Translations under genes and position numbers: made by a program | From: Candidatus Nanosynbacter sp. | Lineage (GTDB): Bacteria > Patescibacteriota > Saccharimonadia > Saccharimonadales > Saccharimonadaceae | Direction of reading: 5' to 3' | Assembly: GCA_015257665.1 (NCBI GenBank) | Contig: JABZJS010000001.1 | Span: forward strand, 155,526-219,525 | DNA: 64,000 nt | Part shown: positions 30,656 through 64,000 of the stretch, piece after piece | How positions within the stretch are numbered: position 1 is the stretch's first letter | How the letters are laid out: each line of letters opens with the position of its first letter | The notes under the pieces: model-generated | Seen by the model: the letters and a program-made list of their open reading frames with translations, nothing else | Told to the model about the DNA's origin: nothing | The model's database searches: none

Positions 30656-31975
30656 CTACGTAAGCCGATCAAGCACCACCAAATGCTCACTATGCGGCGT
30701 GCGAGGGAAAAAGTTGTAGCCCCGGTGGTAGGCAATGCCGTAGTACGCGGCAAGAAGCGCTACGTCGCGCGCCTGAGTGACGGGGTTGCAACTAAGGTAG
30801 AGGATGCGCTGCGGCTGGGTGGCGAGGAGTTTGGTAATGACATCGGCGTGAAGGCCAGCGCGTGGTGGGTCCAGAATGATGAGCGCATCGCCAGTAATGT
30901 GTTCCAGCGCTTGCTCGCTGGGTGCGAGAATAGCCTTGGCTTGGCTCGTGCGGCCCAGCTGGCGGATGTTGCGCTGCATCTCACGCACCGCATTGGCGTT
31001 GATCTCCACCAGTGTGACGTTATCACTGCCGATCGTGAGGCCAATCGTCCCTACCCCGGCATAGAGGTCGAGCGTGGGCCGGGACGTGCTATCCTGCACC
31101 GGGACGAACCGCTGCATATCGCGCAGTGCTTGCTCATAGACCGGCAGATTAACTTGGAAGAACCCTTCGGTGGCGTAGCGAAACGGCACGCCAAGAATGG
31201 TATCCTGTAATACAGGATCGCCAAAGTATGCCAGGCGCTCGGTGATGCGACTGGCTGGCGAGCGGGGGTCGGAGTAGATAATCTCGCCGCCCTGGGCTGA
31301 CAAAGTGGCGGCTTCGTCTGGGCTGATAACATCGCCTAGGCGGTCTTTGGTGTAGAGCTGCCACACGCAGTGGCCGGCTTGGTCACAGCGGATGAGGAGG
31401 GTCTTGAGCTGGCGCGCTGTCACTTGCTTGGTGCGCAGCAGGTCGCGCACCTGCCGGGCGAGCTGGTTGATATCCGGCCGAGCTAAGCTCGTCCCGTCAA
31501 CGACAATTTTGCCCTTGCTCCCCCGCCGAAAGAACGCGAGGTCGAGCGTCTCGGTGCCATCCTCTGCCCTGTCGCTATACCAACTCAGCTCAACTTTATT
31601 GCGGTAGCCATAGGGTATACCATCGCAAAAAACGTCGATCGGCTCTGGCAGGACGATATTGTGCAGCTCAAAGGCTTCCTCGATCAGCGCTGCCTTATAA
31701 TGCTGTTCGCTGGCCAGTGGCATAATTTGCCATGGGCTGGTGCTGAGGTAGCTCTCGGGGTCGCGCGGAGTAATGCGTTCGGGCGAAGCAGCGAGCACCT
31801 CAGTCACCACTCCTTCGACGAAGTGCGATTTTTTCTTGGTGATGCGAATAGTGACGGTCTCGCCAGGTAACCCACCCCAGACGAAGGCCTTGCGGCCATC
31901 ATCAAGTGTGCCGAGAGCTTGCCCACCACCGACGATCTTTTCGAGCTGGATTGTTGCGAATGTTGGTTTTCTCAT
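30656..31975 (-). CDS. rlmD: 23S rRNA (uracil-C5)-methyltransferase RlmD/RumA family (TRAM + SAM-dependent MTase)
   Basis: 439 aa; N-terminal TRAM, FFQVN..., LDLYAGVGTIGL SAM motif, DPPRAGL. Confidence 0.8.
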   Translation of the reverse strand: MRKPTFATIQLEKIVGGGQALGTLDDGRKAFVWGGLPGETVTIRITKKKSHFVEGVVTEVLAASPERITPRDPESYLSTSPWQIMPLASEQHYKAALIEEAFELHNIVLPEPIDVFCDGIPYGYRNKVELSWYSDRAEDGTETLDLAFFRRGSKGKIVVDGTSLARPDINQLARQVRDLLRTKQVTARQLKTLLIRCDQAGHCVWQLYTKDRLGDVISPDEAATLSAQGGEIIYSDPRSPASRITERLAYFGDPVLQDTILGVPFRYATEGFFQVNLPVYEQALRDMQRFVPVQDSTSRPTLDLYAGVGTIGLTIGSDNVTLVEINANAVREMQRNIRQLGRTSQAKAILAPSEQALEHITGDALIILDPPRAGLHADVITKLLATQPQRILYLSCNPVTQARDVALLAAYYGIAYHRGYNFFPRTPHSEHLVVLDRLT

Positions 31976-32040: not shown

Positions 32041-34395
32041 CTATTTGCCTTGCTGCCACTGCCAGGTGGTGACCATTGGGTGGTCGGTGTGGTGCTCGCG
32101 TGCGTGGGCGAGGCACTGCTCAATCGCTGCGTGGCAGTGCTCCGTGAGGCGCTGGGTGTCGTCTGGGGAGATAACGCCTGTTGCACTAAGGCAGGTTGCG
32201 GCGGCAATGGCAAGATCATAGCGGCTAGCCTGCTGGGTAATGAGGCTTGTCATGAGCGTGTCGCCATGTGGTGCCAGGCCGAAGCTGCGGATATCAAACT
32301 GCCGACCATCAACCCCATAAGCAAAGAGCGTTGCCGCGAGAGAGCGTTCTTCGCCCGGGTAGGCGATAATCACCGGCTTGGTCGTTGTGAGGGTACGGGC
32401 GAGCGTTCGCCGCGAGACAGGTTGAGCGAGCGTGCCAAAGCCACGTGGTGTGAGGCTCGAGATATTGACGCAGCGTACCCGGGCAGCCGGGCAAGCATGA
32501 GCGATGAGCTCAATAGCGGCCAATACTTCTGTAGTAGCAACATCGCCACACGCGGCTAGTACAATATCTGGACTGGTGTGGCTGGCGAAGTTCCACGTAG
32601 CAAGCCCCGCCTGCATCTGAGCTCGAGCCGCCTTGGTGGTGAGCCAGGTGGGCTGCGTGGTATCGCTGGCATGCAATATATTGATCACCTGCGTGCTCGA
32701 CAGCATCATATCGAGCGTCACCACCGCGCAGTTGCTATCGGCTGGGAAGTAGACCGTTGTGGGGGCGTCTCGCTGATCAAGCACATTGGTTATCTGCTCG
32801 GCACTCTGGTGCGAGAGGATGGTGTTGAGGCTCGGTAGCGGCGCGCTGCTTGGCTGGCTCGATAGAGCTGCGGTATACGAGCGACTTGCCGCGCTCATGT
32901 CCTCATGCAGGGACGCTCCAACGAAGACGCTTTGCCTCCCCTGCTCCAGATAGCCAAGCTGCATACCGCGTAGCGCGCCTGCTGCTGGGTAGCTCATCGT
33001 ATGGCTATCTGGTGCGTGTGGCGCTGTGCTGGGCTGACTGCCCCACTGCCAGGCTCGTGGGTTTGATGCAAAACGCTGAGCGAGCGTACCGCTCTGTAGC
33101 GACGGACTTATAAACAGCCGGAAACTATCTGGTACCGCGTCCTTGGCAAGATCGGTCAGGTACGAACCAACGCGAGAGAGCGTATTGCTGCGCTGCGTGC
33201 CAGGTGGCGTTGCGACGACTGCATAAGGCTCAATAGCCGGCCGGCGTAGTCGCGTGGCTGATAGGGCGGGCTGCGTAGCGGTGAGCTGAGCTGCACCTAA
33301 GGAGGGGTCATTATCGGCATGAGCTGCAGCCGTGTGCGGCAGAGCCTTCGTCTCGGCAAACGTGAGATTGCCTGCTGCGTCAAACAGATTCTCTGGCTCA
33401 CACCACGCAAGCACCTGAGCAAGCCATGCCTGCGTGCGTGCCTGGCTCGAGTCAGTGCCATCTGCTTTGCGGTGAGCAAGCGCTGCCTGTGCCCGGGCAA
33501 TGCTTGATGGCTGAACATCGCCGCTATCATGTTCGGCTGGAGCGAGTGAGTCCTCTTGTGTTTCGTGCTCAGCGAGTAACGTCTCAAGCTGTTCTGGAGT
33601 ACGCACAAGCAACAGTGGTCGACGGGCTTTGTGTGGGCGCGGTTGGGCTGGCTGGCGCAAAGCAGCAGTGCGCTCAGTTGCCCAGGCGAGCGCAGCAGTG
33701 TAGTCTGCGTCTGGCTGGCACGGGTTAGCTGTGGTACAGTCAACGATTCGCGGCTCATACCCATAGCCAATAAAAAGCGCAAGCAGCTCGTAGGTGGAAA
33801 GCGTAGCGAGCAGTGTCTTGGGCCGCAGCTGAATGATCGGGATAATCGTGCCGTCAGTCGCAGGGCTGAGGAGCTTCGCCAGGTGCCACGGGGTATCGTC
33901 TTGGGCGACTGCGCTATCGATCAAGCAGTAGATCACTTGCTCTGGCTGGCCAAGTGCCCTGCCGCTTGCCTGAGCGAGTGCACCACCAAGACGAGCGTCA
34001 CAGAGATGTATTGCGTCAGACAATGAAGTTTGCGGGTCGTGTGTTAACGTGCAAAGCGCATCAATCCCCGCTTGTGAGCGAGCAATATCGCAGCCAGGTT
34101 GCAACATATCATAGACGAGCGCATGAGCGCGTGCTGCCGCCCATCGCTCGCGATCGGTAATAATGAGCGGCGCTGCGCCACCCGACTGAGCATACTCCGC
34201 AATCTGAGCCAAGCTAAAGCTCAGCGCGAAGTCTGCCGCAAGCGCTGCCCGGAGCTCATCCGAGTCAAGCTGCTTTATATCGCTTGGCTGTAACGGCTGG
34301 CCAGCTGGCAGTGTGCGCCAGAGTGCACGCTGTGCTAGCACAGTATAATAGGCCGCTTGCCGGTAGCGCATCGTCATCCCACCATTCGTATCCAT
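32041..34395 (-). CDS. Divergent phosphoketolase-family homolog lacking canonical TPP/catalytic motifs (possible pseudoenzyme)
   Basis: Several blocks align with Xfp by eye: TDGTIIPIIQLRPKTLLATL...LFIGYGYEP, LGGALAQASG, NILHASDTTQPTWLT...AACGDVATTEVLAA, C-terminal FDIRSFGL. The expected GHWGT and GPGHGG positions are replaced (DELRAALA / TDRERWAA). Ala-rich, ~60 % GC. The N-terminus is uncertain; the six-frame ORF extends to 34524. Confidence 0.55.
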   Translation of the reverse strand: MDTNGGMTMRYRQAAYYTVLAQRALWRTLPAGQPLQPSDIKQLDSDELRAALAADFALSFSLAQIAEYAQSGGAAPLIITDRERWAAARAHALVYDMLQPGCDIARSQAGIDALCTLTHDPQTSLSDAIHLCDARLGGALAQASGRALGQPEQVIYCLIDSAVAQDDTPWHLAKLLSPATDGTIIPIIQLRPKTLLATLSTYELLALFIGYGYEPRIVDCTTANPCQPDADYTAALAWATERTAALRQPAQPRPHKARRPLLLVRTPEQLETLLAEHETQEDSLAPAEHDSGDVQPSSIARAQAALAHRKADGTDSSQARTQAWLAQVLAWCEPENLFDAAGNLTFAETKALPHTAAAHADNDPSLGAAQLTATQPALSATRLRRPAIEPYAVVATPPGTQRSNTLSRVGSYLTDLAKDAVPDSFRLFISPSLQSGTLAQRFASNPRAWQWGSQPSTAPHAPDSHTMSYPAAGALRGMQLGYLEQGRQSVFVGASLHEDMSAASRSYTAALSSQPSSAPLPSLNTILSHQSAEQITNVLDQRDAPTTVYFPADSNCAVVTLDMMLSSTQVINILHASDTTQPTWLTTKAARAQMQAGLATWNFASHTSPDIVLAACGDVATTEVLAAIELIAHACPAARVRCVNISSLTPRGFGTLAQPVSRRTLARTLTTTKPVIIAYPGEERSLAATLFAYGVDGRQFDIRSFGLAPHGDTLMTSLITQQASRYDLAIAAATCLSATGVISPDDTQRLTEHCHAAIEQCLAHAREHHTDHPMVTTWQWQQGK

Positions 34396-34491
34396 TGCCT
34401 CTAGTATACACGCTTGTGCTTGCTGACGGAATAGGCCGAGGCGAGATTGTGTGCGTTTACGACGCATAGGCTTGTTTGCTACACTAGCAGT

Positions 34492-35217
34492 ATGAAACGA
34501 CGTGTTGCTAGCCATGGCCAACATTTTTTGCGTAGCCCCCGCGTGGCGGCTATCTTACTGGGTCATAGTACCATCCGCCGGCGCGATACAGTTTATGACC
34601 TCGGGGCAGGTAGCGGCGTCATTACAAGCGCCTTAGCGCGGCGCTGCCAGCAGGTGGTAGCGGTCGAGAATGAGCCACGTGCGCTCGATGCTCTGCGCAG
34701 GCATACCGCAGCCGTGCCACATGTCCGCATCATCGCGGCTGATATTCGCCAGCTGACTCTTCCTGCTGAGCCATATAAAGTATTTGCCAATATCCCCTTT
34801 GCGCTCAGTGCCGATATCGTGCGGATGCTCACTACCGCCCCTGCCCCACCACAAGCGATCTATCTCATCGTCCAGCGCCAATTTGCGTACAAGCTCGTGC
34901 CGAGCGACCGCCACTTTACGGCGGCGCTGGGTGCCCAACTCGCCCCGTGGTGGCAGGCGCGGATCCGCTACCGCTTGCGCCGGACAGATTTCACACCACC
35001 ACCCGCCGTCGATACGGTATTGCTCGAGCTCTTGCCGCGCACCGAGCCCTGGCTACCCCGCAATCAGCAGGCAGCGTACAGCCAGTTTGTCGCGCAGCAC
35101 TACGCCGAGCCGCGGCGCTTCGCTGCCCTGCCGCGCGCCCAGCTTGGTATCAACCCTGAACGTAAGCCATCAGAACTTCAGCCTAGGCAGTGGGTGCAGC
35201 TCTATCAAATATCCTGA
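34492..35217 (+). CDS. rRNA adenine N6-methyltransferase, Erm/KsgA family (Erm-like)
   Basis: HGQHFL...DTVYDLGAGSGVIT...VVAVENE...KVFANIPFALSADIV...AIYLIVQRQFAYKLV. The pattern is closer to Erm (SIPYHLST / DIYLIVEEGFYKR) than to KsgA (NLPYNISTP). Confidence 0.7.
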   Translation: MKRRVASHGQHFLRSPRVAAILLGHSTIRRRDTVYDLGAGSGVITSALARRCQQVVAVENEPRALDALRRHTAAVPHVRIIAADIRQLTLPAEPYKVFANIPFALSADIVRMLTTAPAPPQAIYLIVQRQFAYKLVPSDRHFTAALGAQLAPWWQARIRYRLRRTDFTPPPAVDTVLLELLPRTEPWLPRNQQAAYSQFVAQHYAEPRRFAALPRAQLGINPERKPSELQPRQWVQLYQIS

Positions 35218-35233
35218 AGAATTTCGGTTACTG

Positions 35234-35581
35234 CTAGGCGAGCTCCTGATTATACGCGAGTGCTCGGTCAATCCAGTAGGATAACTCTCGTTGCCCTTCT
35301 GTATCGAGATCAATGTAGCCATGATAAAGCCGACCCTTCATCAATGTGACGCGAGCACCCTTTCTAGGTAAAACCTGTTTTTCCATTTCTTTGCCAATTC
35401 GCACCATGACAAGATCTTGACCTCGTGAACTGACCGTGACTGCCATCTTCCCACGGACCATAAAGGCTAAGCCGCCAAACATCTTCTTTTCTACTACTTC
35501 TTCCTCGAAGATATGAGGCGAAAGTGTATGTGCTAGAATGCTACGGATCTGTTGGGCTAAGGATTCGTTATATGTCATCAC
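35234..35581 (-). CDS. TfoX N-terminal domain protein
   Basis: 115 aa; KKMFGGLAFMVRGKMAV motif. Confidence 0.5.
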   Translation of the reverse strand: MMTYNESLAQQIRSILAHTLSPHIFEEEVVEKKMFGGLAFMVRGKMAVTVSSRGQDLVMVRIGKEMEKQVLPRKGARVTLMKGRLYHGYIDLDTEGQRELSYWIDRALAYNQELA

Positions 35582-35587
35582 TTGTCC

Positions 35588-36004
35588 TTACTTTAGCATC
35601 ACATCCCAGCCAATACCAAAACGGTCAATCACACGGCTATAAAACTCCGCAAAAGGTTGCTTCTCGAGAGTATAGAGAATTTGGCCTCCTTCTGCAAGCT
35701 GAGCAAAGAATTTATCCGCTTCTTCTCGACTATCTGGGTATATAACCAACCATTGGTTGGGCTGGTGGTTACGAGAAATAGACAGATTATTGAAGACACC
35801 AACATCCTCCCCATTGAGAGTCAGATTCTCAATATCCAAAGCAATCCAGGCAATTTTATTTCGCTTTTCTACTGGAAGACTCGCTGGATCCATCATATCA
35901 CTGGCTCGAGCAATCCCCTTTATCTCTGTCTGAAAAAGGTCTGCATAAAAGCGAAACGCCTCTTCAGCCTGACCATTAAAACTCAAAAATACTCCTAATT
36001 TCAT
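35588..36004 (-). CDS. VOC/glyoxalase-like (PhnB-like) protein
   Basis: 138 aa; overall glyoxalase/bleomycin-resistance-like pattern. Confidence 0.5.
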   Translation of the reverse strand: MKLGVFLSFNGQAEEAFRFYADLFQTEIKGIARASDMMDPASLPVEKRNKIAWIALDIENLTLNGEDVGVFNNLSISRNHQPNQWLVIYPDSREEADKFFAQLAEGGQILYTLEKQPFAEFYSRVIDRFGIGWDVMLK

Positions 36005-36059
36005 TGTTGTTCCTCCGATATTTACGTCTGAGAATGCATTCCTACCAGTAGTTTATCAA

Positions 36060-36863
36060 CTATGATAAAAAATTTCTTATTCTCAATTGCGCTTGTGTGG
36101 CAAGGGAGCGCATGACAAAAACCGGAAGATTAATTGTGATAGGTGGACCACTCGGCAAGGGCCTACGCATGAGGATTTTCTCCTGACGGGCGCTATCTCC
36201 TGTAAAAACGAGAGGCTCGTCACTCCCCCAGCGAAAGTTATGTTTCAAGACATAATTTTTAGTCAGGCGTAAATCCTCTAGTAATTCACAAGCCAAAAGA
36301 TAGTACTGGCCATTAGGCACATTAGCAAAAGTAAATCGCCTCTCCTGACTTAGCGCCACTCCAACAACTGGCGCTTCTTTTGGCATACGAGTCTTAAAAA
36401 GCCCGACACAGCTAATACGAGGCTCATAATCAGCAGGATAAAGAAGCTCTACTACCAGGCGGTTGCTACTTCGATAGTGAGGATCTTGATGTAAGAGTGT
36501 ACCTTTCTCTTCTAGCTGCTTGATCATACAATCATAAGCCTTGGTTGATTCTTGGTAATATCTTTTCGGCGATAGCCCTGTATGGCGCTTAAAGGTGTTA
36601 GAAAAGCTACCCAGACTATCATAACCAACTTCCAGAGACGTCTCAGTTACGTTTTGCCGACCTTCTATAATCTCCTGAATCCCTTTTTCTATCTTAAGAG
36701 CTTCTTGGTATTGTTTGATAGAAAAGCCCATCTTTTTCTTGAAGGTTCTGGACAGATGAGAAGGGCTATAATGGAAGTTCTGCGCCAGCTCTGCGAGGCC
36801 TACTTCTCTATCTGCACGCTGACGAATGTAGATCGCTACTGCTTCCATGGTCTCTCTGGCCAT
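36060..36863 (-). CDS. AraC-family transcriptional regulator
   Basis: N-terminal AraC HTH (HYSPSHLSRTFKKKMGFSIKQYQ) with a C-terminal effector domain. Confidence 0.8.
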   Translation of the reverse strand: MARETMEAVAIYIRQRADREVGLAELAQNFHYSPSHLSRTFKKKMGFSIKQYQEALKIEKGIQEIIEGRQNVTETSLEVGYDSLGSFSNTFKRHTGLSPKRYYQESTKAYDCMIKQLEEKGTLLHQDPHYRSSNRLVVELLYPADYEPRISCVGLFKTRMPKEAPVVGVALSQERRFTFANVPNGQYYLLACELLEDLRLTKNYVLKHNFRWGSDEPLVFTGDSARQEKILMRRPLPSGPPITINLPVFVMRSLATQAQLRIRNFLS

Positions 36864-55645: not shown

Positions 55646-57607
55646 CTATAATAAGAGACGTTGTCGGGGTGTAGCGCAGCTGGTAGCGCGTACGGCTGGG
55701 GGCCGTGAGGTCGCAAGTTCAAGTCTTGTCACCCCGACCATTGAGTCAACACTCAAACCCACGTCATGGAAGCCCCATGACGTGGGTTTTTGCTTGTTTT
55801 TGCTGGGTTTTGGGGCAGGAAGGCCATCATCTGGCAGACCGTACAAGCCTGGCCCTTCTGACACCGAGACGACGATGTCACTTGGCTGGCTCAATGTGAC
55901 TTCGTCGTCTCCAGAGGCTTCCAGGCTGTCGCCATCTCCTACCTCCACACCCTCTTTGCTCAGGCACGGCTCTCCTCCTCTCACCCCCAGCACCCCATCA
56001 AACGGTGGCTGGTAGCGCACCATCGCAGTGAGCAGCCCAGTCTCGTCGTCTGGTGTGATGTACACCTTGTCGAAGAGCACCTGGTTGAGCATGCGCCGGA
56101 TGTGCTCAGGAGCCTGCCGGTAGGCGGTGGCCATGTGCTGGGCAATATCTAACGCTTGCCCGACCAAGGCCTGCCGCTCTGTCATCTCACCCTCCAGCCC
56201 CGTCATCTGCCGCTCCACACCGCACAGCTCACGGCTTATCCGGCTTTGCTCACGCTTGAGGACGTCAAGCGGAATGGCGTCGGCGTAGTGAGCTTGGAGG
56301 AGCTTGTCTCGCTCCCGTTCGAGCCGTCGCCGCACGGTCTTCGCTTCCGTCAGCCGCTGAGTCGACTCTGCTACCAGCATGGCCACCTGCCGCTGCAGGG
56401 CGGTTTCGAGGACAGCTCGCTGCCCAGGCCGCAACGCCACTCGGTCGTAGAGCCGGACGATCTCATCCTCAATCTGCTCCGCCAACGTTGCCCGAAACAA
56501 GCACTGCGGCTGCTTCTTGGAGTGCCGCCCCAAGCAGACGAAGTACTCATACACCACACCGCGGGGCTTCACATTCGTCACGATGAGACGGGAACCACAG
56601 ATCCCGCAGTAGATCGTCGACTTCAGGTAGTGCGCGTGCTTGACCGTCCGCTCACCGTTGACGCGGGTGGCCAGCAGCGTCTGCACCGACTCGTACGTCG
56701 CCCGATCCACCAAGGGCTCATGGCTCCCGGCATAGTGCACCCCTTGGTAGACCACCTCACCGACGTAGAAGGGATTGTGGAGCACCTTGCTGAGTAGCTG
56801 CACCGTCACCGGCTTCTCCGGCAGTGAGGCGGTCGGCACGGTGGTCAGGCCGCGCAGCGTCAACTCTTCGGCCAAGCGCCTGAGCGTCCACTCCCCACTG
56901 GCGTAGGCCGCAAAGGCCCAGGCCACCAGCGGCCCACGTACCTCATCCACCACCACAATGCGCGCCTCCTGGCCATTCTTCGTCGTGATGACGTTGCGGT
57001 AACCCAGCGGTGCTCGGCCGATGCAGCCACCACCCCGCACTTTCTCAGCCATGCCTTTCTTCACCTCATTGGAGAGGTTCTTGGAGTAGAACTCAGCGAT
57101 ACTGGCCATAATGCCGTGAACCAGCAGCCCACCGGGCGTCTGATCGATATTCTCGCTGGTCGACACCAGCCGAACGCCGAGCTCATCGAAGCGTTTACCC
57201 AAGGTGGTGTCGTCGTAGCGGTTGCGCACCAGGCGGTCGAGTTTGTGGACGATGACGTAGTCGACCGGCCGCCCCGACCGAGCCTCCTCCTCCAGGTAGG
57301 TCAGCATCGCCTGGAGAGCCGGGCGCCGCGTGGTAGTGGCGCTGACACCACCTTCGGTGAACTCCTTGCCGATGATGGCGCCGATGCTCATCGCCTTGCG
57401 CTTGTTGGCCGACCGCTGGGCCGGGATGGAGAAGCCCTCCTCACGGCCGCCCCGCCGGGCCTGCTCGCGGGTAGAGACGCGCAGGTAGGACACGGCGCGC
57501 CGGGGAGTCAGCTCCTGGGCCAGCTGCTCGGCCGAGTTTTGGATGGTGGGAGAAGGGGCGGTAGCGCGCCCTGTTGCTCCATAATTAGGTGATAGCGTAT
57601 TGCTCAT
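55646..57607 (-). CDS. Large serine recombinase (integrase of the tRNA-Pro-inserted element)
   Basis: 653 aa; N-terminal resolvase domain AVSYLRVSTREQ (catalytic Ser), recombinase domain, zinc ribbon CGICGSRLIV...CLGRHSKKQPQC and coiled coil. The 3' end of the ORF runs through the tRNA-Pro sequence, consistent with integration into the tRNA 3' end; ~65 % GC. Confidence 0.9.
   Translation of the reverse strand: MSNTLSPNYGATGRATAPSPTIQNSAEQLAQELTPRRAVSYLRVSTREQARRGGREEGFSIPAQRSANKRKAMSIGAIIGKEFTEGGVSATTTRRPALQAMLTYLEEEARSGRPVDYVIVHKLDRLVRNRYDDTTLGKRFDELGVRLVSTSENIDQTPGGLLVHGIMASIAEFYSKNLSNEVKKGMAEKVRGGGCIGRAPLGYRNVITTKNGQEARIVVVDEVRGPLVAWAFAAYASGEWTLRRLAEELTLRGLTTVPTASLPEKPVTVQLLSKVLHNPFYVGEVVYQGVHYAGSHEPLVDRATYESVQTLLATRVNGERTVKHAHYLKSTIYCGICGSRLIVTNVKPRGVVYEYFVCLGRHSKKQPQCLFRATLAEQIEDEIVRLYDRVALRPGQRAVLETALQRQVAMLVAESTQRLTEAKTVRRRLERERDKLLQAHYADAIPLDVLKREQSRISRELCGVERQMTGLEGEMTERQALVGQALDIAQHMATAYRQAPEHIRRMLNQVLFDKVYITPDDETGLLTAMVRYQPPFDGVLGVRGGEPCLSKEGVEVGDGDSLEASGDDEVTLSQPSDIVVSVSEGPGLYGLPDDGLPAPKPSKNKQKPTSWGFHDVGLSVDSMVGVTRLELATSRPPAVRATSCATPRQRLLL
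55665..55740 (+). tRNA. tRNA-Pro (anticodon GGG), CCA encoded
   Basis: Acceptor CGGGGTG/CACCCCG, D-arm GCGCAGCTGGTAGCGC, anticodon loop CTGGGGG, T-loop TTCAAGT, 3' ACCA. Confidence 0.8.
55757..55795 (+). terminator. Rho-independent terminator after tRNA-Pro
   Basis: aaacccacgtcatgg / ccatgacgtgggttt hairpin followed by ttgcttgtttttg. Confidence 0.55.
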
Positions 57608-57781
57608 TGTTTACTCCTTTCATAGTAGGTAATGTTGATTCACTTCGCTCTTTCTAGTAACGCTCCACATCGAGAAAATGTCCAGTCATCACACCGATAT
57701 CACCACACATTCACACGAGACACCGAGAGGGAGGCACTATAGGTAATTGACAGCCACCAACTCAAAGGATACACTTATAGT

Positions 57782-58162
57782 ATGCGTAAATCTCATAGGT
57801 CACACCAAGATGCTCGGCCATCATGTTCCTCTCGCCACGGTGAGTGCTATACCGAACAGCCGGAGGTTGGTGCTACGATCGGGCGCCATGCCGTAGATCT
57901 CGCATCTCCGGACAGCACAGGAGCGACAAGCACAGCCACAGAAACAACCAAGGACGCTGTCACCACGATGGACGCTGAAGCAACGCCTTCCACCACCCCT
58001 GAGGAGTGGGGTAAGCTAACCGAGGAATTCACAGTAACCCTGCACGGCAAGGTTATCCACGCTTTAGTGTACTCGCGCCCTTATGACGACAGATGGACTT
58101 TGTTCACAACTGTTGATGCAGAAACCAATCAGGTCATCAACGCCGAAGTCTCTCTAACGTAG
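57782..58162 (+). CDS. Hypothetical protein (low-GC cargo gene 1)
   Basis: 126-aa ORF (possibly shorter, from MDAEATPST); GC clearly lower than the flanking element. Confidence 0.35.
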   Translation: MRKSHRSHQDARPSCSSRHGECYTEQPEVGATIGRHAVDLASPDSTGATSTATETTKDAVTTMDAEATPSTTPEEWGKLTEEFTVTLHGKVIHALVYSRPYDDRWTLFTTVDAETNQVINAEVSLT

Positions 58163-58179
58163 CCATTCCATCTTTTCTG

Positions 58180-59130
58180 GTGAGGCCTATGACGTCTCAA
58201 GATGATGCAATCGATACCGACCGCCCACCACCCCCTCTTTCTTATCGAATCCCTGCCGCCATTCTCGAATTCATCGGATATTCATCTGCGTTCGTAACGA
58301 TTCTCGGCTATTTTATTGGCCCATTTCCTGAGATTATCCCTCCTCCATGGCGAATCCCCTTAGTGGTTGTCGGGTTCTTGGCTGTGTTGGTCGCCGCATC
58401 GATCACTTCCGCACGAGCCACAACTCGCTACCTATCGCATTTCGACGTTTCTCTCGCCAAGCATCTCGATGATTTCAAAAGCGATGTTGGCAACGCGCTT
58501 GAAGAAGCGACATCCGTGCAAGCGAACGCCGAGGCCATGCGCGCTGCCGGCAAAGAAATTTCCTCGCTCACACACGACCTTCAGAAGTCAGCATTCAAGA
58601 TCAGCAATTCCGACAATCCTCGCGAGTACGCTCGCAATCAGATCCACCAAGCACTCACTCGGTTCGCCCGCACCTATAGCCGTTTGAGCGGGCACGAGAT
58701 GAGAGCTTGTATCAAGATCATCAAGACCGACGACAAAGGCAAACGCGTCGCCGTCACGCTTGCGCGAAGCAACACCACCTTGCTGGACGATGACGAGTAC
58801 AACCTCATCACGCACAACACCGATTTCAAAGCGATCAGTGCTGGTCAGCTGACGTGGCACTCCTCCTCGGTCTCCACCGAGAACGACTACCAAAACTCCA
58901 GCCCGAACCGGCAGTACGAATCTGTTCTCGTCTGGGGGATACGCGATATCGGTAGGCCGCCGCCTACAGATTCCCTTGTCGGCTTCCTCTGTCTCGACTC
59001 AGTCGACGCCGGCGCGATAGACCCAGACAGAGATGCACCTTTCGGCTGGTGGTTCATTGATGCCTTCCGGGCGTTGTGCACGAATGCTCCCGACTCTGTT
59101 TTGGACATCACGTTGTCAAAGAACGATTAA
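58180..59130 (+). CDS. 2-TM membrane-anchored hypothetical protein (low-GC cargo gene 2)
   Basis: 316 aa; two N-terminal TM helices followed by a ~240-aa soluble domain; no recognisable catalytic motif. Confidence 0.5.
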   Translation: MRPMTSQDDAIDTDRPPPPLSYRIPAAILEFIGYSSAFVTILGYFIGPFPEIIPPPWRIPLVVVGFLAVLVAASITSARATTRYLSHFDVSLAKHLDDFKSDVGNALEEATSVQANAEAMRAAGKEISSLTHDLQKSAFKISNSDNPREYARNQIHQALTRFARTYSRLSGHEMRACIKIIKTDDKGKRVAVTLARSNTTLLDDDEYNLITHNTDFKAISAGQLTWHSSSVSTENDYQNSSPNRQYESVLVWGIRDIGRPPPTDSLVGFLCLDSVDAGAIDPDRDAPFGWWFIDAFRALCTNAPDSVLDITLSKND

Positions 59131-59137
59131 CGGTACT

Positions 59138-59935
59138 TCATGTACTCACCGCCCCATTCCGTATCGTCTCCCCGATCTGCTGGTTAGTGATGACAGCGAA
59201 AAGCGCAGCGGGTAGGCGTTGGTCGCTGGCGATGACGCGGCGCAGCTGCTGGCAGCGCGTAGCGCTTGGCACCACCCACAGCACGAGTGGAAAGACACCG
59301 CAGGCTCGCTGCTCGGCCCCACTGGCGTAGTAGGCGGCGTAGCGCTGGCAGGCAGTCAGGACACGGGCGGGGTTCTCGGTGTCGCGGTCGACCTCGATGA
59401 AGTAATGGTCGTCGTAGTGCGGGCTGGTGACGACGGCGTGCAGGTCGGGCCGCAGGGTGAGCTGCTGCCCAGCCGGCCCCAGGTAGGAGCGCCAGCAGCC
59501 TGGCTCGGTGGTGATGGCGGCACTGGCGTCCGTCATGGAGCGAGCGGTCTCGGTTATCTGCACACTGGTCTCGGTGATCGCCAGCAAATGAGCCAAGAAG
59601 CTGATGGACAGGCTGCGCGGGCGCTGCCGACTACGGCTGCCGGTTTGCACGCGGCGCCCACGAGTCGTGAGCGTCCAGATGGAGACGGTAGAGCCGCCCT
59701 GCCAGCCGCCAACCCGTCGCTCCAGGCGGGTGACCAGGTCGTACTCCTGCAGCCGCGCTAGGTGGCGCAGCGTCTGCCGGATAGCGGAGGACAGCGAGCC
59801 ATAAGCCTCAGCTGTCAGGCGGGCCAGCTGGGTCGTCGTCGCGAAGCGGTAGGTGGCCAGCAGCGCCAGGAGCCGATGCGCCGCGGGGTGGTCGCAGGCA
59901 TGGGGAAGATGCTGTCTCATGGTGTCCTCCTCCAT
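59138..59935 (-). CDS. Putative replication-relaxation family protein (winged-helix N-terminus)
   Basis: 265 aa; LLALLATYRFATTTQLARLT...LARLQEYDLVTRLERR pattern typical of plasmid/ICE replication-relaxation proteins. Confidence 0.4.
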   Translation of the reverse strand: MEEDTMRQHLPHACDHPAAHRLLALLATYRFATTTQLARLTAEAYGSLSSAIRQTLRHLARLQEYDLVTRLERRVGGWQGGSTVSIWTLTTRGRRVQTGSRSRQRPRSLSISFLAHLLAITETSVQITETARSMTDASAAITTEPGCWRSYLGPAGQQLTLRPDLHAVVTSPHYDDHYFIEVDRDTENPARVLTACQRYAAYYASGAEQRACGVFPLVLWVVPSATRCQQLRRVIASDQRLPAALFAVITNQQIGETIRNGAVST

Positions 59936-60110
59936 GGTTCGTCCTTCTCCCCCACGGGCCAGTGGTGACGCCAGAACATGGGGTCAGTCACCGCCACTGC
60001 TCGGCCGTATGCCGCGCTATGGCGGGCATTGGTGGCTCGGCTCAGGCCAGCGATCCGTCTGCCGAACCGTCGTGCCAGGCGTCCTGCGAAGGCGGTGCGA
60101 AGCAACGGCA

Positions 60111-62249
60111 TCATCGCCGCCTCCGGCCGATTGGGCTGTCGTTATCCGTCGCTGATGTAGGTGCGCTGGTAGACGTCGATGAGGTGAGGGCGAGCAGCGC
60201 CTGCTCGGTCTGCTCTGCCGGTACGCCGTAGCGCGCGTGGCTGGCGGCATAGAGGGTGGCTGGGTCACGGCGCCGTGCGGCCGCCGGCTGGGTGGTGAGC
60301 GAGAACCAGTCGCTGCGCTGGCCGCGCTGCATCAGCTGGGCGTAGGCGTGGAAGGCGGGCAGCAGCTGGAAGTCGACCGCCTCCAGCTCGGGCGCCAGGC
60401 GGGCGGCCGCCGCGGCGTCGGTGCCTGAGAGGCCGAAGTACAGCTTGTTGCGCGCATTGCTCTCGATCGCCTGCACCATCGCGGGCGACAGCTGCGCGCG
60501 GTACTGATGCGCCAGGTGGAAGGCCCCGCCCAGCGAGCGGGCCTGGGCCAGCGCTTCTGACAGGTCATGCGGCAAGCCACCGATGAACTCATGCGCCTCG
60601 TCGATGAAGATGCTGACGATGTGGCGCTGCTCTGGCGGCAGAGATTGGCGGGCCAGGAGGAGCGTCCACAACTGCGACACCAGCAAGGTACCCAGCAGCC
60701 GGGCTGCACCCGCCCCGAGCAGGCCACGGTTGAGATTGACGACGACGACGCGCCGCCGGGTAAAGAGCTCTGCCAAGTCGAAGCGCGGCTGCGCTTGCCC
60801 CAGCACGGCGCGCAGATAGGGACGCAGGATGAGCTGGCGCAGCTTGTTGAGCACTGGCGCGATCTCCGTCGCTTGCGCCTCCGGTTTCTTGGCGTTGTAG
60901 GCCGCCCAGAAGGCGCCGGTGCCCAGTGGATCGTCCGGCACCTGAGCCAGCACCCACCGGCGAAAGGCCGGATCCGTCAGCAAGGGCGGCAGCCACAGCA
61001 GCGTCGCCTGCGGTAGGCGGACCAAGGTCAGCAGCGCGGCAGATAGGACATCAGCGGTGCGAATGCCCCAGTGCTCGCGAAACAGCGCCTCAAAGGTGCT
61101 CAGCATCGCCTCTGCCGTGACGGGTGCCATCTGAGGCGGCCCGGCCAGCGGATTGAGGCCAACTGGTGCTGGGTTGCTTGGGTCAATCACCACCACGTCG
61201 CGCTGGCGCTGCTCGGGCAGGCGGGCGAGAAAGTCCGTCGCCAGGTCACCCTTAGGGTCGATCAGGAGCAAACCCCGGCCCTGCGCGGCGTCGGCCAGAG
61301 CCAAGGCCAGCATGACGGTGGACTTACCAGCCCCAGTCGGCCCCAGCAGGTGTGTGTGGTAGGCGGCATCGACGATGGCGATCCCTACTGGCTGCGCCTG
61401 GCCAGGCGCGCTGGTCATACCCACCACGCGACGCCGCTCCAGCAGTGGTGTCGACGGCGGCAAACGGCGCGGATGCAGGCTGCCCAGCAGCGGCAATGGC
61501 GCCTCACCGATCGGCCAACCAGTCAGTGCGGCCAACCGACCAGAGCGCAGGCGCAGGGGCCAGCACCAGGGGCGACGGGCCTCATCGATCTTGTCTGTCG
61601 CCTCAGCCACCAGCCGGACGGACGACTGCGCGGTCTCCACCAGGCGCAGCGCCCCAAGCAGCTGAGCAAAGCGCTGGTGTGCCTCAGCACTCGGCCCGCG
61701 ATAGCCGAGCCGGAGGCAGACGGCGGCGCCATGCTGCTCATCGGCTGGTTTGCTGGCGCGGGCGGGCGACTGTGCCGCGTCGTAGCCGACCAGCAACTGC
61801 CGCCAGAGCGAGGGCGGCGGCGTCTCCGCCAAAGAGGCTGGACTGAGTCGGCGCCCCACCAGCAGTTGCAGCACTACCTGCTGCGAACCCGTCAGGCCAG
61901 AAAGGGCAGCATAGAGGGCGCGCACCGCCGCAGTAACGCGCTCGGGCAGGTGACTGACCTGCCGCCCCCGTACCATCACGCGCACCGCCCGCGTCATGGG
62001 CAGGCGCGGCTGCTCGGGTCGGTGCAAGCGTGCCGGCAGGTGATTGCTCAGCAGCGCCGCCAGGCCGGGCCGGCCAGTTTGCGTGCCCACCAGCCAGTGC
62101 GCACCACTGGCGTCGGCGCGCAGCTCCAGCACCAGTGGCCCCAATTCCGTCGCCGTCGTCAGGCGCTCCAATGCCGTGGTGGCCAGTGCTGGGCTGATTG
62201 GGCTGTCCCAGGCCAGCTCCTGCCACTGCCACTGCCGGTGCCCGGTCAT
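60111..62249 (-). CDS. Type IV coupling-protein-like ATPase (VirD4/TraD/TraG family)
   Basis: 712 aa; Walker A GPTGAGKST, LLIDPKGD motif, Walker B region IFIDEAHEF, C-terminal TraD-like HLAHQYRAQLSP. Confidence 0.65.
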   Translation of the reverse strand: MTGHRQWQWQELAWDSPISPALATTALERLTTATELGPLVLELRADASGAHWLVGTQTGRPGLAALLSNHLPARLHRPEQPRLPMTRAVRVMVRGRQVSHLPERVTAAVRALYAALSGLTGSQQVVLQLLVGRRLSPASLAETPPPSLWRQLLVGYDAAQSPARASKPADEQHGAAVCLRLGYRGPSAEAHQRFAQLLGALRLVETAQSSVRLVAEATDKIDEARRPWCWPLRLRSGRLAALTGWPIGEAPLPLLGSLHPRRLPPSTPLLERRRVVGMTSAPGQAQPVGIAIVDAAYHTHLLGPTGAGKSTVMLALALADAAQGRGLLLIDPKGDLATDFLARLPEQRQRDVVVIDPSNPAPVGLNPLAGPPQMAPVTAEAMLSTFEALFREHWGIRTADVLSAALLTLVRLPQATLLWLPPLLTDPAFRRWVLAQVPDDPLGTGAFWAAYNAKKPEAQATEIAPVLNKLRQLILRPYLRAVLGQAQPRFDLAELFTRRRVVVVNLNRGLLGAGAARLLGTLLVSQLWTLLLARQSLPPEQRHIVSIFIDEAHEFIGGLPHDLSEALAQARSLGGAFHLAHQYRAQLSPAMVQAIESNARNKLYFGLSGTDAAAAARLAPELEAVDFQLLPAFHAYAQLMQRGQRSDWFSLTTQPAAARRRDPATLYAASHARYGVPAEQTEQALLALTSSTSTSAPTSATDNDSPIGRRRR

Positions 62250-62486
62250 GACGCCCCTCCATCTGCCCTGTTAGCTGCGGAGTCATTAGCCGCGTCATCA
62301 ACCTCATCGTCATCCGGTAGCGTGGTTTTCTCATCCCGTTGCTGCTCCAGCCGTTGCAGCATGAGCAGCAGCAAGACCCGTGCCAATGCATCGGCGTCCA
62401 GCTCGCTGCGCCAGGACGGCACCGCGCGGTAGTGCGGCCGTCCCTGGTCTCGTCGCTTGCGGCAGGTCATAGCCGCCTCCGATCCA

Positions 62487-62675
62487 TCACCAGCGCTGGC
62501 GATACCAACGCCACACGGCAACTAGCAGCGCCACCACACCGGCCAGGGCCAGCACCCACCAGTAGCGGCAGAGCAGCTCGACCGCCCAGATCAGCAGCAC
62601 CACGCCACCAAAGACGTACACGCAACTGCGGAAGAAGCGCGCCGCCAGCGACCCCATGCCGATTCCATCTCGCAT
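62487..62675 (-). CDS. Small membrane protein
   Basis: 62 aa, 2 TM. Confidence 0.3.
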   Translation of the reverse strand: MRDGIGMGSLAARFFRSCVYVFGGVVLLIWAVELLCRYWWVLALAGVVALLVAVWRWYRQRW

Positions 62676-62696
62676 CAGTCAGTCCTCTCATCGCTC

Positions 62697-63407
62697 TCAT
62701 GACGTGCCCTCCTCGCCAGCGGCATCCATAGCGTCTGTTTCATCGTCAGCCGGAGCCAGCGCCGCCTGCGGCCACTGCCGATCGCTCGGCACGCGGTAGC
62801 CCCAGCGGGCCAGCGAGATGGTCGAGGCGCATTCGTCGCCCCAGATGTCCCAGTGCTGGCGCGATGGCGCCGCCCGGCGGGCGAACAACTCCACAAAGGG
62901 CCCGTTGCCCACCAGTCGCTCGACGATCTGGTGGATCTCCTCCGGCTTGTGCGAGTGCTCCTGCAACGGGTGGAAGCCCCAGTTGGGCTGGGCCCGAAAG
63001 GCCACCCGGGTACCCTGTCCCCGCACGCCCAGCAACAACAGCTCGCCGGCGTTACGGAAGGTGTGCCCCATGGAGAAGCGCGGCTTGGCCCAGAAGTAGA
63101 AGCTGGTGTAGCGGAAGCCCCAGGCCTCCAGCAGCTCGATCCCCTGCGGCACTGTCGCCGTAGTCACCCAGACGAAGCAGAACGAGCGCGGCGCCGTTAT
63201 CTCCCGCACTGCCTCACCCATGGCACGCAGCCGCGGCAGCGGCATCAGGCGGTAGTGCTGCGCCGCCCCGTGACGCCCCATCTGCTGGCTGCACCACGGC
63301 GGATCGGCCAGCACCGCTCGGAACGTCCCACGCTGCGGCGCCCCATCTGCCTGGTTATGCGTGGCGTGCGATTGGCTCGCCAGCGCGTGATTTGTCAGAT
63401 TGCTCAT
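62697..63407 (-). CDS. MT-A70-family N6-adenine DNA methyltransferase
   Basis: DPPW catalytic motif (LADPPWCSQQMG) and MT-A70-like downstream blocks. Confidence 0.7.
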   Translation of the reverse strand: MSNLTNHALASQSHATHNQADGAPQRGTFRAVLADPPWCSQQMGRHGAAQHYRLMPLPRLRAMGEAVREITAPRSFCFVWVTTATVPQGIELLEAWGFRYTSFYFWAKPRFSMGHTFRNAGELLLLGVRGQGTRVAFRAQPNWGFHPLQEHSHKPEEIHQIVERLVGNGPFVELFARRAAPSRQHWDIWGDECASTISLARWGYRVPSDRQWPQAALAPADDETDAMDAAGEEGTS

Positions 63408-63695
63408 TACGATCCCTCCTTTGCGCGCTTATCTGCTATTTGTGTACGCGTACAAAACGCGCTCACACTCCCCATTACGAACCGATTTGCTCGATTTGTG
63501 AACCCCCTCGCCAGCCACAACTCCCACCGACGCGACACGCCACCAGCGATGTGCCGTTCTGGGGTGGCACCACAGAGAACAAAATGGACACGAAGGCCAA
63601 ATAGTGGCGGCGAAAATACATGCTGTAGTTATTGCAACAGGCAGCCAGGTCGGCCCGCACATGGCAATGTGGAGCGCGAATCAGCTGGGCGTCTG

Positions 63696-63977
63696 TCAGC
63701 ACGAGCTGTTCGCGCCGCCTGGCTCGTCCTTGCCGTTGGCGGCCTCTTCAGGCTCCGCAGCCGCCTCCTGCGCCCGCCTCGTCATCGCCACGGCGCTGTG
63801 GAAGGCGGCCAGGTCGTGGGCCTGCTTGGTGGCGATGGCCTGCTGCCAGGCGTCGGTCTGGGCGCGGGTGGTTGTGGTGGGCGAAGTGTCGTCGCGCCAG
63901 ACCGCCCAGGCCAGCAGGGCGATGGCGATGAGCGTCAGGCAGCCGACGAAGGCCAGGCCATTGATGATCCAGCTCAT
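63696..63977 (-). CDS. Small membrane-anchored protein
   Basis: 93 aa, N-terminal TM. Confidence 0.3.
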   Translation of the reverse strand: MSWIINGLAFVGCLTLIAIALLAWAVWRDDTSPTTTTRAQTDAWQQAIATKQAHDLAAFHSAVAMTRRAQEAAAEPEEAANGKDEPGGANSSC

Positions 63978-64000
63978 GGTGGGTATGTCCTTTCTGGTGA

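Follow-up and report, generated by a model that had tools for sequence, protein, structure and literature searches.

Does the Erm-like gene on the chromosome of an oral Saccharibacterium encode an enzyme of the antibiotic-resistance type or the housekeeping methyltransferase KsgA, and was it acquired from elsewhere? We addressed this question in a 64,000-nucleotide stretch of Candidatus Nanosynbacter sp. (GCA_015257665.1, contig JABZJS010000001.1, positions 155,526 to 219,525), hereafter the window. A reading of this DNA from its letters alone (the sequence-only reading) had picked out a gene for an Erm-like ribosomal RNA (rRNA) adenine methyltransferase in a block rich in guanine and cytosine (GC), and had left room for it to be the organism's only KsgA-type enzyme. 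We find that, within the rRNA adenine dimethylase (RRAD) family, the gene falls on the Erm branch, and that oral TM7/Saccharibacteria have long carried it on the chromosome and passed it on vertically. On balance the evidence leans towards a product that would methylate A2058 of 23S rRNA and so give intrinsic insensitivity to macrolides, lincosamides and streptogramin B (MLSB).

The gene product belongs to the Erm branch

The coding sequence (CDS) runs on the forward strand from an ATG at 34492 to a stop codon at 35215-35217 and specifies 241 amino acids (aa), one more than the 240 counted earlier; the three peptide strings quoted in the sequence-only reading, DTVYDLGAGSGVIT, KVFANIPFALS and AIYLIVQRQFAYKLV, are all found in the translation. 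A longer form could begin at an in-frame TTG at 34447, adding 45 nucleotides (nt). This start is unlikely because homologues begin with MKR or MRR residues, matching the ATG at 34492, and because the 45 nt 5' of that ATG are poorly conserved among the 38 sister genomes and form the least conserved part of the region in the comparison of 39 genomes. Homologue starts and upstream conservation thus agree with the boundaries first proposed, 34492-35217. The protein matches Pfam RrnaAD (PF00398, E = 6.5e-36), which places it in the RRAD family, and it has the Rossmann methyltransferase domain, S-adenosylmethionine (SAM) motifs I-III, N-x-P-(Y/F) motif IV and helical C-terminal domain of that family. 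Its AlphaFold2 (AF2) model has a predicted local distance difference test (pLDDT) score of 94.9.

Hidden Markov model (HMM) comparisons place the protein on the Erm side of this family. The top NCBIfam model is the broad Erm model NF000499, which scores 184.5 bits and is covered from position 1 to 242 of 244. The ksgA model TIGR00755 gives 116.2 bits against a cutoff of 171, and its alignment covers positions 6-212 of 256, ending before the C-terminal domain. Class-specific Erm models score 49-110 bits against cutoffs of 320-800, and none is passed. Family relatives that are 40-49% identical to the window protein behave similarly on NF000499 (169-179 bits). A HMMER scan of 1.84 billion representative proteins returned 87 matches at or below 1e-30. 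We classified 20 of the best full-length matches by NCBIfam (19 representatives and a Klebsiella plasmid protein), and the Erm model ranks top for all 20; three sequences at ~38-39% identity reach 200-204 bits on that model, and 8 of the 20, at ~29-36% identity, exceed its 212-bit cutoff.

We then placed the family in a neighbour-joining (NJ) tree of 40 sequences and 240 columns with 300 bootstraps, taking as references the annotated records of Erm(A), (B), (C), (X) and (42), the Erm(42)-like plasmid protein and five KsgA/RsmA proteins. KsgA separates from all other sequences with 100% bootstrap support, and KsgA plus Erm(X) from the rest with 91%; the Saccharibacteria family is monophyletic at 89-91% and groups with KsgA in 0%. 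This pattern brackets the Saccharibacteria family by validated Erms, namely Erm(X), Erm(A/B/C) and Erm(42). The phylogenetic placement that had been named as a check therefore fell on the Erm side and never within KsgA.

Structural comparisons point the same way. A single-sequence phmmer search against the PDB is undecided (Dim1 74 bits, ErmE 69). A profile built from 20 family members scores 130 bits against ErmAM and ErmC', 123 against ErmE and 116-119 against KsgA proteins, which separates Erm from KsgA modestly; the profile reaches residue 239 on ErmAM and ErmE and ~209 on most KsgA. The top five Foldseek matches of the predicted model are to ErmE, Erm38 and ErmC'. In a MAFFT alignment two marks of KsgA are missing from the protein, the insertion that precedes motif IV and the QRRK helix in the C-terminal domain; with that helix missing and the ksgA alignment stopping at 212 of 256, we saw no sign of the KsgA-specific C-terminal domain. 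HMM scores, nearest neighbours, NJ tree, PDB profile and missing KsgA hallmarks all bear out the original preference for Erm over KsgA.

Residues of the cofactor site and adenine pocket are conserved

Conservation within the family was counted in 146 homologues. The N-terminus, M-K-R-R-V-A-S-H-G-Q-H-F-L, contains the Erm motif X, (G/S/T)-Q-(N/H)-F, with the basic region that precedes it; Arg or Lys occupies positions 2-3 in the family, and Q10, H11 and F12 are kept in 143, 140 and 145 of the 146 sequences. Among 44 known Erms, six have His at the third position of motif X (PMC7998614). At the SAM site, G38, G40, G42 and E59 are invariant across the family and D84 is present in at least 90%, and in the MAFFT alignment these residues line up with EIGSGKG, E59 and D84 of ErmC. 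In motif IV the N, I and P are each found in 146/146 and F103 is invariant, while F167 and P169 of motif VIII are invariant or nearly so. The latter two are the counterparts of ErmE F196 and P198, which are needed for resistance, and ErmE Y134 is the motif IV aromatic of the adenine pocket; the combination of a motif IV aromatic with a motif VIII F-x-P that marks the Erm adenine pocket is thus found as F103, F167 and P169. K134, at the basic-ridge position for which ErmE (K164) requires Arg or Lys, is Lys in 144 of the 146 homologues.

The C-terminal domain ends in a conserved KPSEL.P..WV.LY, and the AF2 model predicts helices there at residues 190-205, 207-211 and 231-240. In ErmC', the corresponding domain anchors the enzyme to a precursor of the 50S subunit, and the catalytic domain reaches helix 73 (PMC12652253). 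As judged from the alignments, residues shown by mutagenesis to be important in ErmE, ErmS and ErmC are kept in the window protein, and the active site is intact.

The gene is chromosomal, syntenic and under purifying selection

In a distribution scan of one genome per GTDB species, 136 stretches were found to encode relatives, of which the best 80 were kept. Among these best 80 of 136, 78 are labelled Candidatus Saccharibacteria, Saccharimonadales, Saccharimonas or Nanosynbacter, and the other two are a 'Patescibacteria group bacterium' (isolate SACCH1) and a 'bacterium'. Identity to the window protein among them ranges from 51 to 99%: 38 loci are 93-99% identical, a large group that includes one Nanosynbacter genome is 62-65% identical, and environmental genomes are 51-60% identical. 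One close genome (L027, 96% identical) corresponds to ORAL_P-B-M_MAG_00010 of Shaiber et al. 2020, with 0.99 Mb and 52.0% GC; it is assigned to plaque clade P1_c, and P1 equates with TM7 group G1. The GC content of the window, 53.5%, fits that genome, and the host is an oral-plaque Saccharibacterium of TM7 group G1, clade P1.

We compared gene order by tblastn of the window proteins against the 80 loci. A TRAM-type RNA methyltransferase gene (-), a phosphoketolase-like gene (-) and the Erm-like gene (+) stand in this order in every one of the 38 close loci that is long enough to show it, and the order recurs in the 62-65% clade and at three loci belonging to a 55-56% clade. In the distant clades the TRAM methyltransferase is syntenic and 52-75% identical (best tblastn segments). 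The phosphoketolase-like gene adjoins the Erm-like gene in the 38 close loci and in more than 25 distant ones. This linkage fails in a more distant relative (L093, 5001-5720 of GCA_049293315.1, contig JBATSN010000017.1; 49% identical), because there the gene sits among translation genes (NusB, RNase III, S16, KhpA and TrmD); it is chromosomal there too.

The sequence-only reading had taken a compositionally distinct, high-GC block as a sign of acquisition. The high-GC block is real in part: the Erm-like gene has 60.1% and its two upstream neighbours 58.8-59.1%. The block is no compositional outlier, however, because many other genes in the window have 57-61%, and the Erm-like gene lies one standard deviation above the mean of the window's 60 longest open reading frames (ORFs; 53.5 ± 6.6%). 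Gene and background GC move together between clades (61/53%, 51/47% and 52.5/49%), so the modest excess belongs to the gene itself and does not betray a recent import. In the window, the gene is flanked by neither an integrase nor a transposase, and by no repeats. Patchy spread, mobile context and alien composition, the marks of a mobile determinant, are thus not found here.

Selection was measured by comparing the window gene with 37 valid sister genomes; one further genome, L033, was left out since its ratio of 0.55 is an indel artefact of ungapped comparison. Across the 37 comparisons the synonymous divergence (dS) is 0.2-0.4 and the ratio of nonsynonymous to synonymous divergence (dN/dS) is 0.02-0.10, with a median of ~0.06, and the ORF is intact in 38 of 38 sister loci. 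The gene is under strong purifying selection.

Proposed function and alternatives

Because a cultured relative, Southlakia epibionticum, has a syntenic gene, the KsgA question can be asked in a second genome. Its SEML1_0379 is a 726-bp gene on the + strand, the same length as the window gene, and is divergent from a phosphoketolase family gene, SEML1_0377, beyond which lies an RNA methyltransferase gene, SEML1_0375, annotated as RsmD family and in the same position as the TRAM methyltransferase of the window. The arrangement differs by a 387-bp hypothetical ORF between SEML1_0379 and the phosphoketolase gene. On length, annotation and synteny, SEML1_0379 is most likely the orthologue of the window gene. 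S. epibionticum also encodes RsmA as a distinct gene, SEML1_0666, of 786 bp (Pfam E = 7e-54), and since this separate enzyme scores well, the SEML1_0379-type paralogue is not the KsgA of that lineage. Transposon sequencing (Tn-seq) found SEML1_0379 to be non-essential in all three conditions. Its dispensability fits an accessory or resistance role, although RsmA proved non-essential there as well.

We propose that SAM would be held at the LGAGSG/E59/D84 site and that the short C-terminal domain, together with the N-terminal basic cap, would dock the enzyme onto the immature 50S subunit, by analogy with ErmC' on its 50S precursor. The target adenine, most likely 23S A2058, would flip into the pocket formed by N100-I-P-F103 and F167-x-P-x-P and receive one or two N6 methyl groups, a modification that would make macrolides, lincosamides and streptogramin B bind less well. 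With no apparent leader or attenuator upstream (see below), constitutive expression is probable, and the lineage would have intrinsic MLSB insensitivity. We infer the A2058 target, the degree of methylation (mono- or dimethylation) and any resistance phenotype.

Several points weigh against a resistance methyltransferase. The 184.5 bits of the protein fall short of the 212-bit cutoff of NF000499, and thus of the AMRFinder HMM cutoff, and its identity to any annotated resistance gene in a plasmid collection is at most 30.5%, so ResFinder-type identity tools would miss the gene. The position equivalent to ErmE R163, which is basic in nearly all Erms, is Tyr in the window protein and Gln in most of the family, and hence non-basic; an R163A mutant of ErmE has a mild defect. 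The tree was built by NJ with an outgroup of proteobacterial KsgA only, and TFB1M and Dim1 were left out. No rRNA lies in the 64-kb window (Rfam finds one tRNA only), so the A2058 site, which in 23S rRNA usually has the context GGAAAGAC, would lie outside the stretch analysed. We found no published MLS phenotype in the literature for any erm-like gene from the candidate phyla radiation (CPR), and the sole experimental study of CPR methyltransferases left out MLS genes. Nor did we find a published macrolide susceptibility for TM7, where erythromycin is mentioned for host genetics only.

What else might the gene be? It could be an Erm-branch paralogue whose chemistry is kept for another purpose, acting on a different rRNA adenine or in a housekeeping or ribosome-assembly role and giving no resistance, and we regard this as a doubtful but serious alternative. 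It would agree with a monophyletic family (89-91%) whose members score 169-184 bits, under the Erm cutoff, and differ at one basic-ridge position, the ErmE R163 equivalent. It would suit a long-standing, core-like gene without mobile context that has a distant relative among the translation genes for S16, TrmD, RNase III and NusB, that lies near another RNA methyltransferase in the window, and that is under strong purifying selection although dispensable in laboratory co-culture. Against it, validated Erms bracket the family in the NJ tree, and its adenine pocket and its C-terminal domain are both Erm-type. To our knowledge, all characterised bacterial non-KsgA members of the RRAD family methylate A2058, and intrinsic chromosomal Erms that confer resistance are known, such as the mycobacterial Erm(37)-(41); both facts count against a purpose other than A2058 methylation.

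The remaining alternatives fare far worse. That the gene is the organism's KsgA/RsmA, the 16S A1518/A1519 dimethyltransferase, is effectively refuted: the protein shares the Pfam family, fold and SAM chemistry of KsgA/RsmA/Dim1, but it scores below the ksgA cutoff, its C-terminal domain goes unaligned to the ksgA model, the motif IV insertion and QRRK are absent, the tree separates the two groups at 100%, and in S. epibionticum the 786-bp RsmA coexists with the syntenic 726-bp orthologue. The suggestion that this might be the only KsgA-type enzyme is not supported, given the same pair of genes in S. epibionticum; within the 64-kb window there is no second RrnaAD gene (phmmer over six-frame ORFs of at least 60 aa), the Erm-like gene matching only itself. 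Among the rows listed in the TM7 pangenome supplement (Shaiber et al.), COG0030 is represented only by an atypical cluster.

A recently acquired mobile MLSB gene in a foreign high-GC island could have explained the 59-60% GC of the gene and its two neighbours against the window mean of 53.5%, and the lower-GC segment that follows; it is refuted by synteny. Acquisition is not supported because gene order is kept where the Erm-like proteins are 55-65% identical and in S. epibionticum, because GC shifts with clade background and no integrase, transposase or repeats lie alongside, because the gene is under purifying selection, and because the variable part of the locus is the low-GC TfoX/glyoxalase/AraC segment downstream; the real mobile element of the window is at 55.6-64 kb. 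A decaying or inactive remnant might be suspected from the non-essential orthologue in Tn-seq and from the degenerate look of the phosphoketolase-like neighbour, yet it is highly improbable given 38 of 38 intact sister ORFs, the low dN/dS at a dS of 0.2-0.4, catalytic motifs that are invariant in the 146 homologues and a confident fold prediction.

We therefore return to an A2058 methyltransferase as the preferred reading. If A2058 is indeed methylated, macrolides, lincosamides and streptogramin B would meet intrinsic insensitivity in an entire, widespread bacterial group of the human mouth. The consequences would reach to the response of oral communities to azithromycin or clindamycin, and to which selective agents and markers suit the culture and engineering of TM7. 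It would support an ecological view in which epibionts tolerate the antibiotics of their actinobacterial hosts. More tentatively, and as a proposal that we would put on the unlikely side, Saccharibacteria may carry a constitutive, vertically inherited Erm-branch enzyme that pre-methylates A2058, making these obligate epibionts of Actinobacteria, the chief makers of macrolides and lincosamides, intrinsically MLSB-resistant as an adaptation to host chemistry; the family would then form an ancient chromosomal reservoir with kinship to Erm(42) and other mobile Erms.

The result also carries a caution for resistome surveys. CPR surveys of 2021 and 2026 report thousands of BLAST 'erm' matches, including ~3.6 per human Saccharibacteria genome; bulk screens of this kind count a core chromosomal, sub-cutoff family as 'erm', and the Erm-like family should not be reported as acquired resistance. 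Known already are a generic annotation in the cultured relative, the counts in bulk resistome surveys and the membership of a well-known enzyme family. The window gene is a new, uncharacterised member of a lineage-wide group of Saccharibacteria Erm-branch methyltransferases.

Relation to characterised Erm enzymes

Among annotated resistance enzymes of the plasmid collection, Erm(42) and an Erm(42)-like protein of a Klebsiella pneumoniae IncC plasmid score best. The plasmid protein shares 29.0% identity with the window protein across 99% of the query (E = 1e-29), and Erm(42) shares 30.5% across 82% (E = 2e-23). The Erm(42) group shares an A/S-N-I-P-F motif IV and a large sub-clade of the tree with the window protein; Erm(42) differs in a C-terminal tail that is ~45 aa longer and in its motif X, SQNF. 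Erm(42), a 23S A2058 monomethyltransferase, is mobile and flanked by insertion sequences on plasmids and integrative and conjugative elements of Pasteurellaceae and Enterobacterales, whereas the window gene is syntenic and sits on the chromosome. As a separate observation, the Klebsiella protein (L081, 2998-3870 of plasmid NZ_OM975890.1) scores 213.5 bits on the Erm model, whose cutoff is 212, and stands half-way on the Erm(42) class model (290 versus 600 bits); it may represent an unnamed mobile Erm class in Enterobacterales.

The classical Erm(A)/(B)/(C') of Firmicutes are much like the window protein in plan: 243-245 aa compared with 241, two domains with a short C-terminal one, and near-identical numbering (E59, D84, motif IV at ~100-104, basic residue at ~134). 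They differ in sequence, with 25-26% identity over aligned columns, and in setting, being plasmid- or transposon-borne and attenuated by leader peptides, whereas the window gene has no apparent leader. Actinobacterial Erms that are intrinsic and chromosomal, namely Saccharopolyspora ErmE and Erm(37)-(41) of mycobacteria, are 25-28% identical; the erm_SHROVE model gives the window protein 110 bits against a cutoff of 320, and the ErmE-specific R165 and R171 are not conserved in it.

Neighbouring genes and the shared upstream region

Coordinates of the Erm-like gene, its functional elements and the other features discussed here are collected in Table 1.

Table 1. Positions in the window of the Erm-like gene, its parts and other features
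Feature	Position	Strand	Basis
Erm-like rRNA adenine N6-methyltransferase CDS	34492..35217	+	ORF, Pfam, NCBIfam, AF2 model, sister-locus intactness
Basic N-terminal residues K2 R3 R4, with motif X G9-Q10-H11-F12-L13	34495..34530	+	family conservation
SAM-binding motif I, L37-G-A-G-S-G42	34600..34617	+	family alignments
Remainder of cofactor site, E59 and D84	34666-34668, 34741-34743	+	family alignments
Catalytic motif IV, N100-I101-P102-F103 (target-adenine pocket)	34789..34800	+	conservation
K134, equivalent of ErmE K164 / ErmC R134 'basic ridge'	34891..34893	+	phmmer to 6nvm, MAFFT
Motif VIII, F167-T-P169-P-P171-A-V-D174 (adenine pocket wall)	34990..35013	+	near-invariant
Short helical C-terminal domain, ~58 aa, Erm type	35041..35214	+	model alignments, predicted helices
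Phosphoketolase-like gene, divergent, conserved neighbour	32041..34524	-	XFP_C, XFP_N, XFP domains
TRAM + U5-type RNA methyltransferase	30656..31975	-	Pfam TRAM, tRNA_U5-meth_tr
Divergent intergenic/promoter region (probable), shared with phosphoketolase-like gene	34396..34491	.	sequence
Large serine recombinase	55646-57607	-	
Replic_Relax protein	59138-59935	-	
Type IV secretion system (T4SS) coupling-protein-like ATPase	60111-62249	-	
MT-A70 methyltransferase	62697-63407	-	

The phosphoketolase-like protein reaches 230 bits where the NCBIfam phosphoketolase cutoffs are 777-1518; XFP_N matches it only in part, and ~175 N-terminal residues go unmatched. It is ~31% identical to its counterpart in the 62-65% clade, where flanking genes are 52-75% identical, and the gene looks degenerate or fast-evolving. 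Its annotated start overlaps that of the Erm-like gene by 33 nt; because of this overlap, its translation probably starts at an internal Met around 34371-34395. The TRAM methyltransferase has a fold resembling the RumA/RlmD and RlmCD class of 23S 5-methyluridine methyltransferases, and in many Saccharibacteria two rRNA-type methyltransferases therefore flank the phosphoketolase-like gene.

Inducible erm genes have a leader ORF and alternative hairpins that sequester the ribosome-binding site, and this arrangement is not seen here: the ~96 nt upstream hold no convincing leader-peptide ORF and leave no room for an erm-type attenuator. A weak hairpin with a T-run at 34450-34468 is a single terminator-like match at chance level. 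We considered a 6-codon mini-ORF beginning with GTG at 34449-34469 as a leader and do not claim it; it overlaps the chance-level hairpin and falls where conservation is lowest. With only ~96 nt available, a hairpin at chance level and no convincing leader, ermB/ermC-type attenuation is unlikely.

Across the 39 genomes, the ~120 nt at 34330-34447, which span the 5' end of the phosphoketolase-like gene, are almost invariant, while 34448-34491 is variable. The near-invariance of 34330-34447 contrasts with a synonymous divergence of 0.2-0.4 elsewhere, and may reflect an overlapping promoter or regulatory constraint for the divergent pair. A perfect TATAAT occurs within this stretch on the + strand, at 34343-34348.

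Other regions of the window

Directly downstream of the Erm-like gene, 35234-36863 encodes a TfoX_N protein (115 aa), a glyoxalase/3-dmu-9_3-mt-like protein (138 aa) and an AraC regulator (267 aa) at 42-47% GC. This segment is a strain-variable insertion: only L007, L013, L025, L028 and L029 among the 38 close loci carry it, and in most of the 38 it is missing and the Erm-like gene adjoins a gene for a PMT_2/GT39-like glycosyltransferase.

The compositionally foreign region of the window is not the Erm-like gene but 55646-64000, a block of 62-70% GC, compared with 53.5%, that adjoins a tRNA gene (55665-55737) and continues past the window end. With its serine recombinase, Replic_Relax protein, coupling-protein-like ATPase and MT-A70 methyltransferase, it has the look of an integrated element, either conjugative or mobilisable. 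The best matches of its coupling protein in the plasmid collection, from Embleya and Streptomyces, are 34-35% identical.

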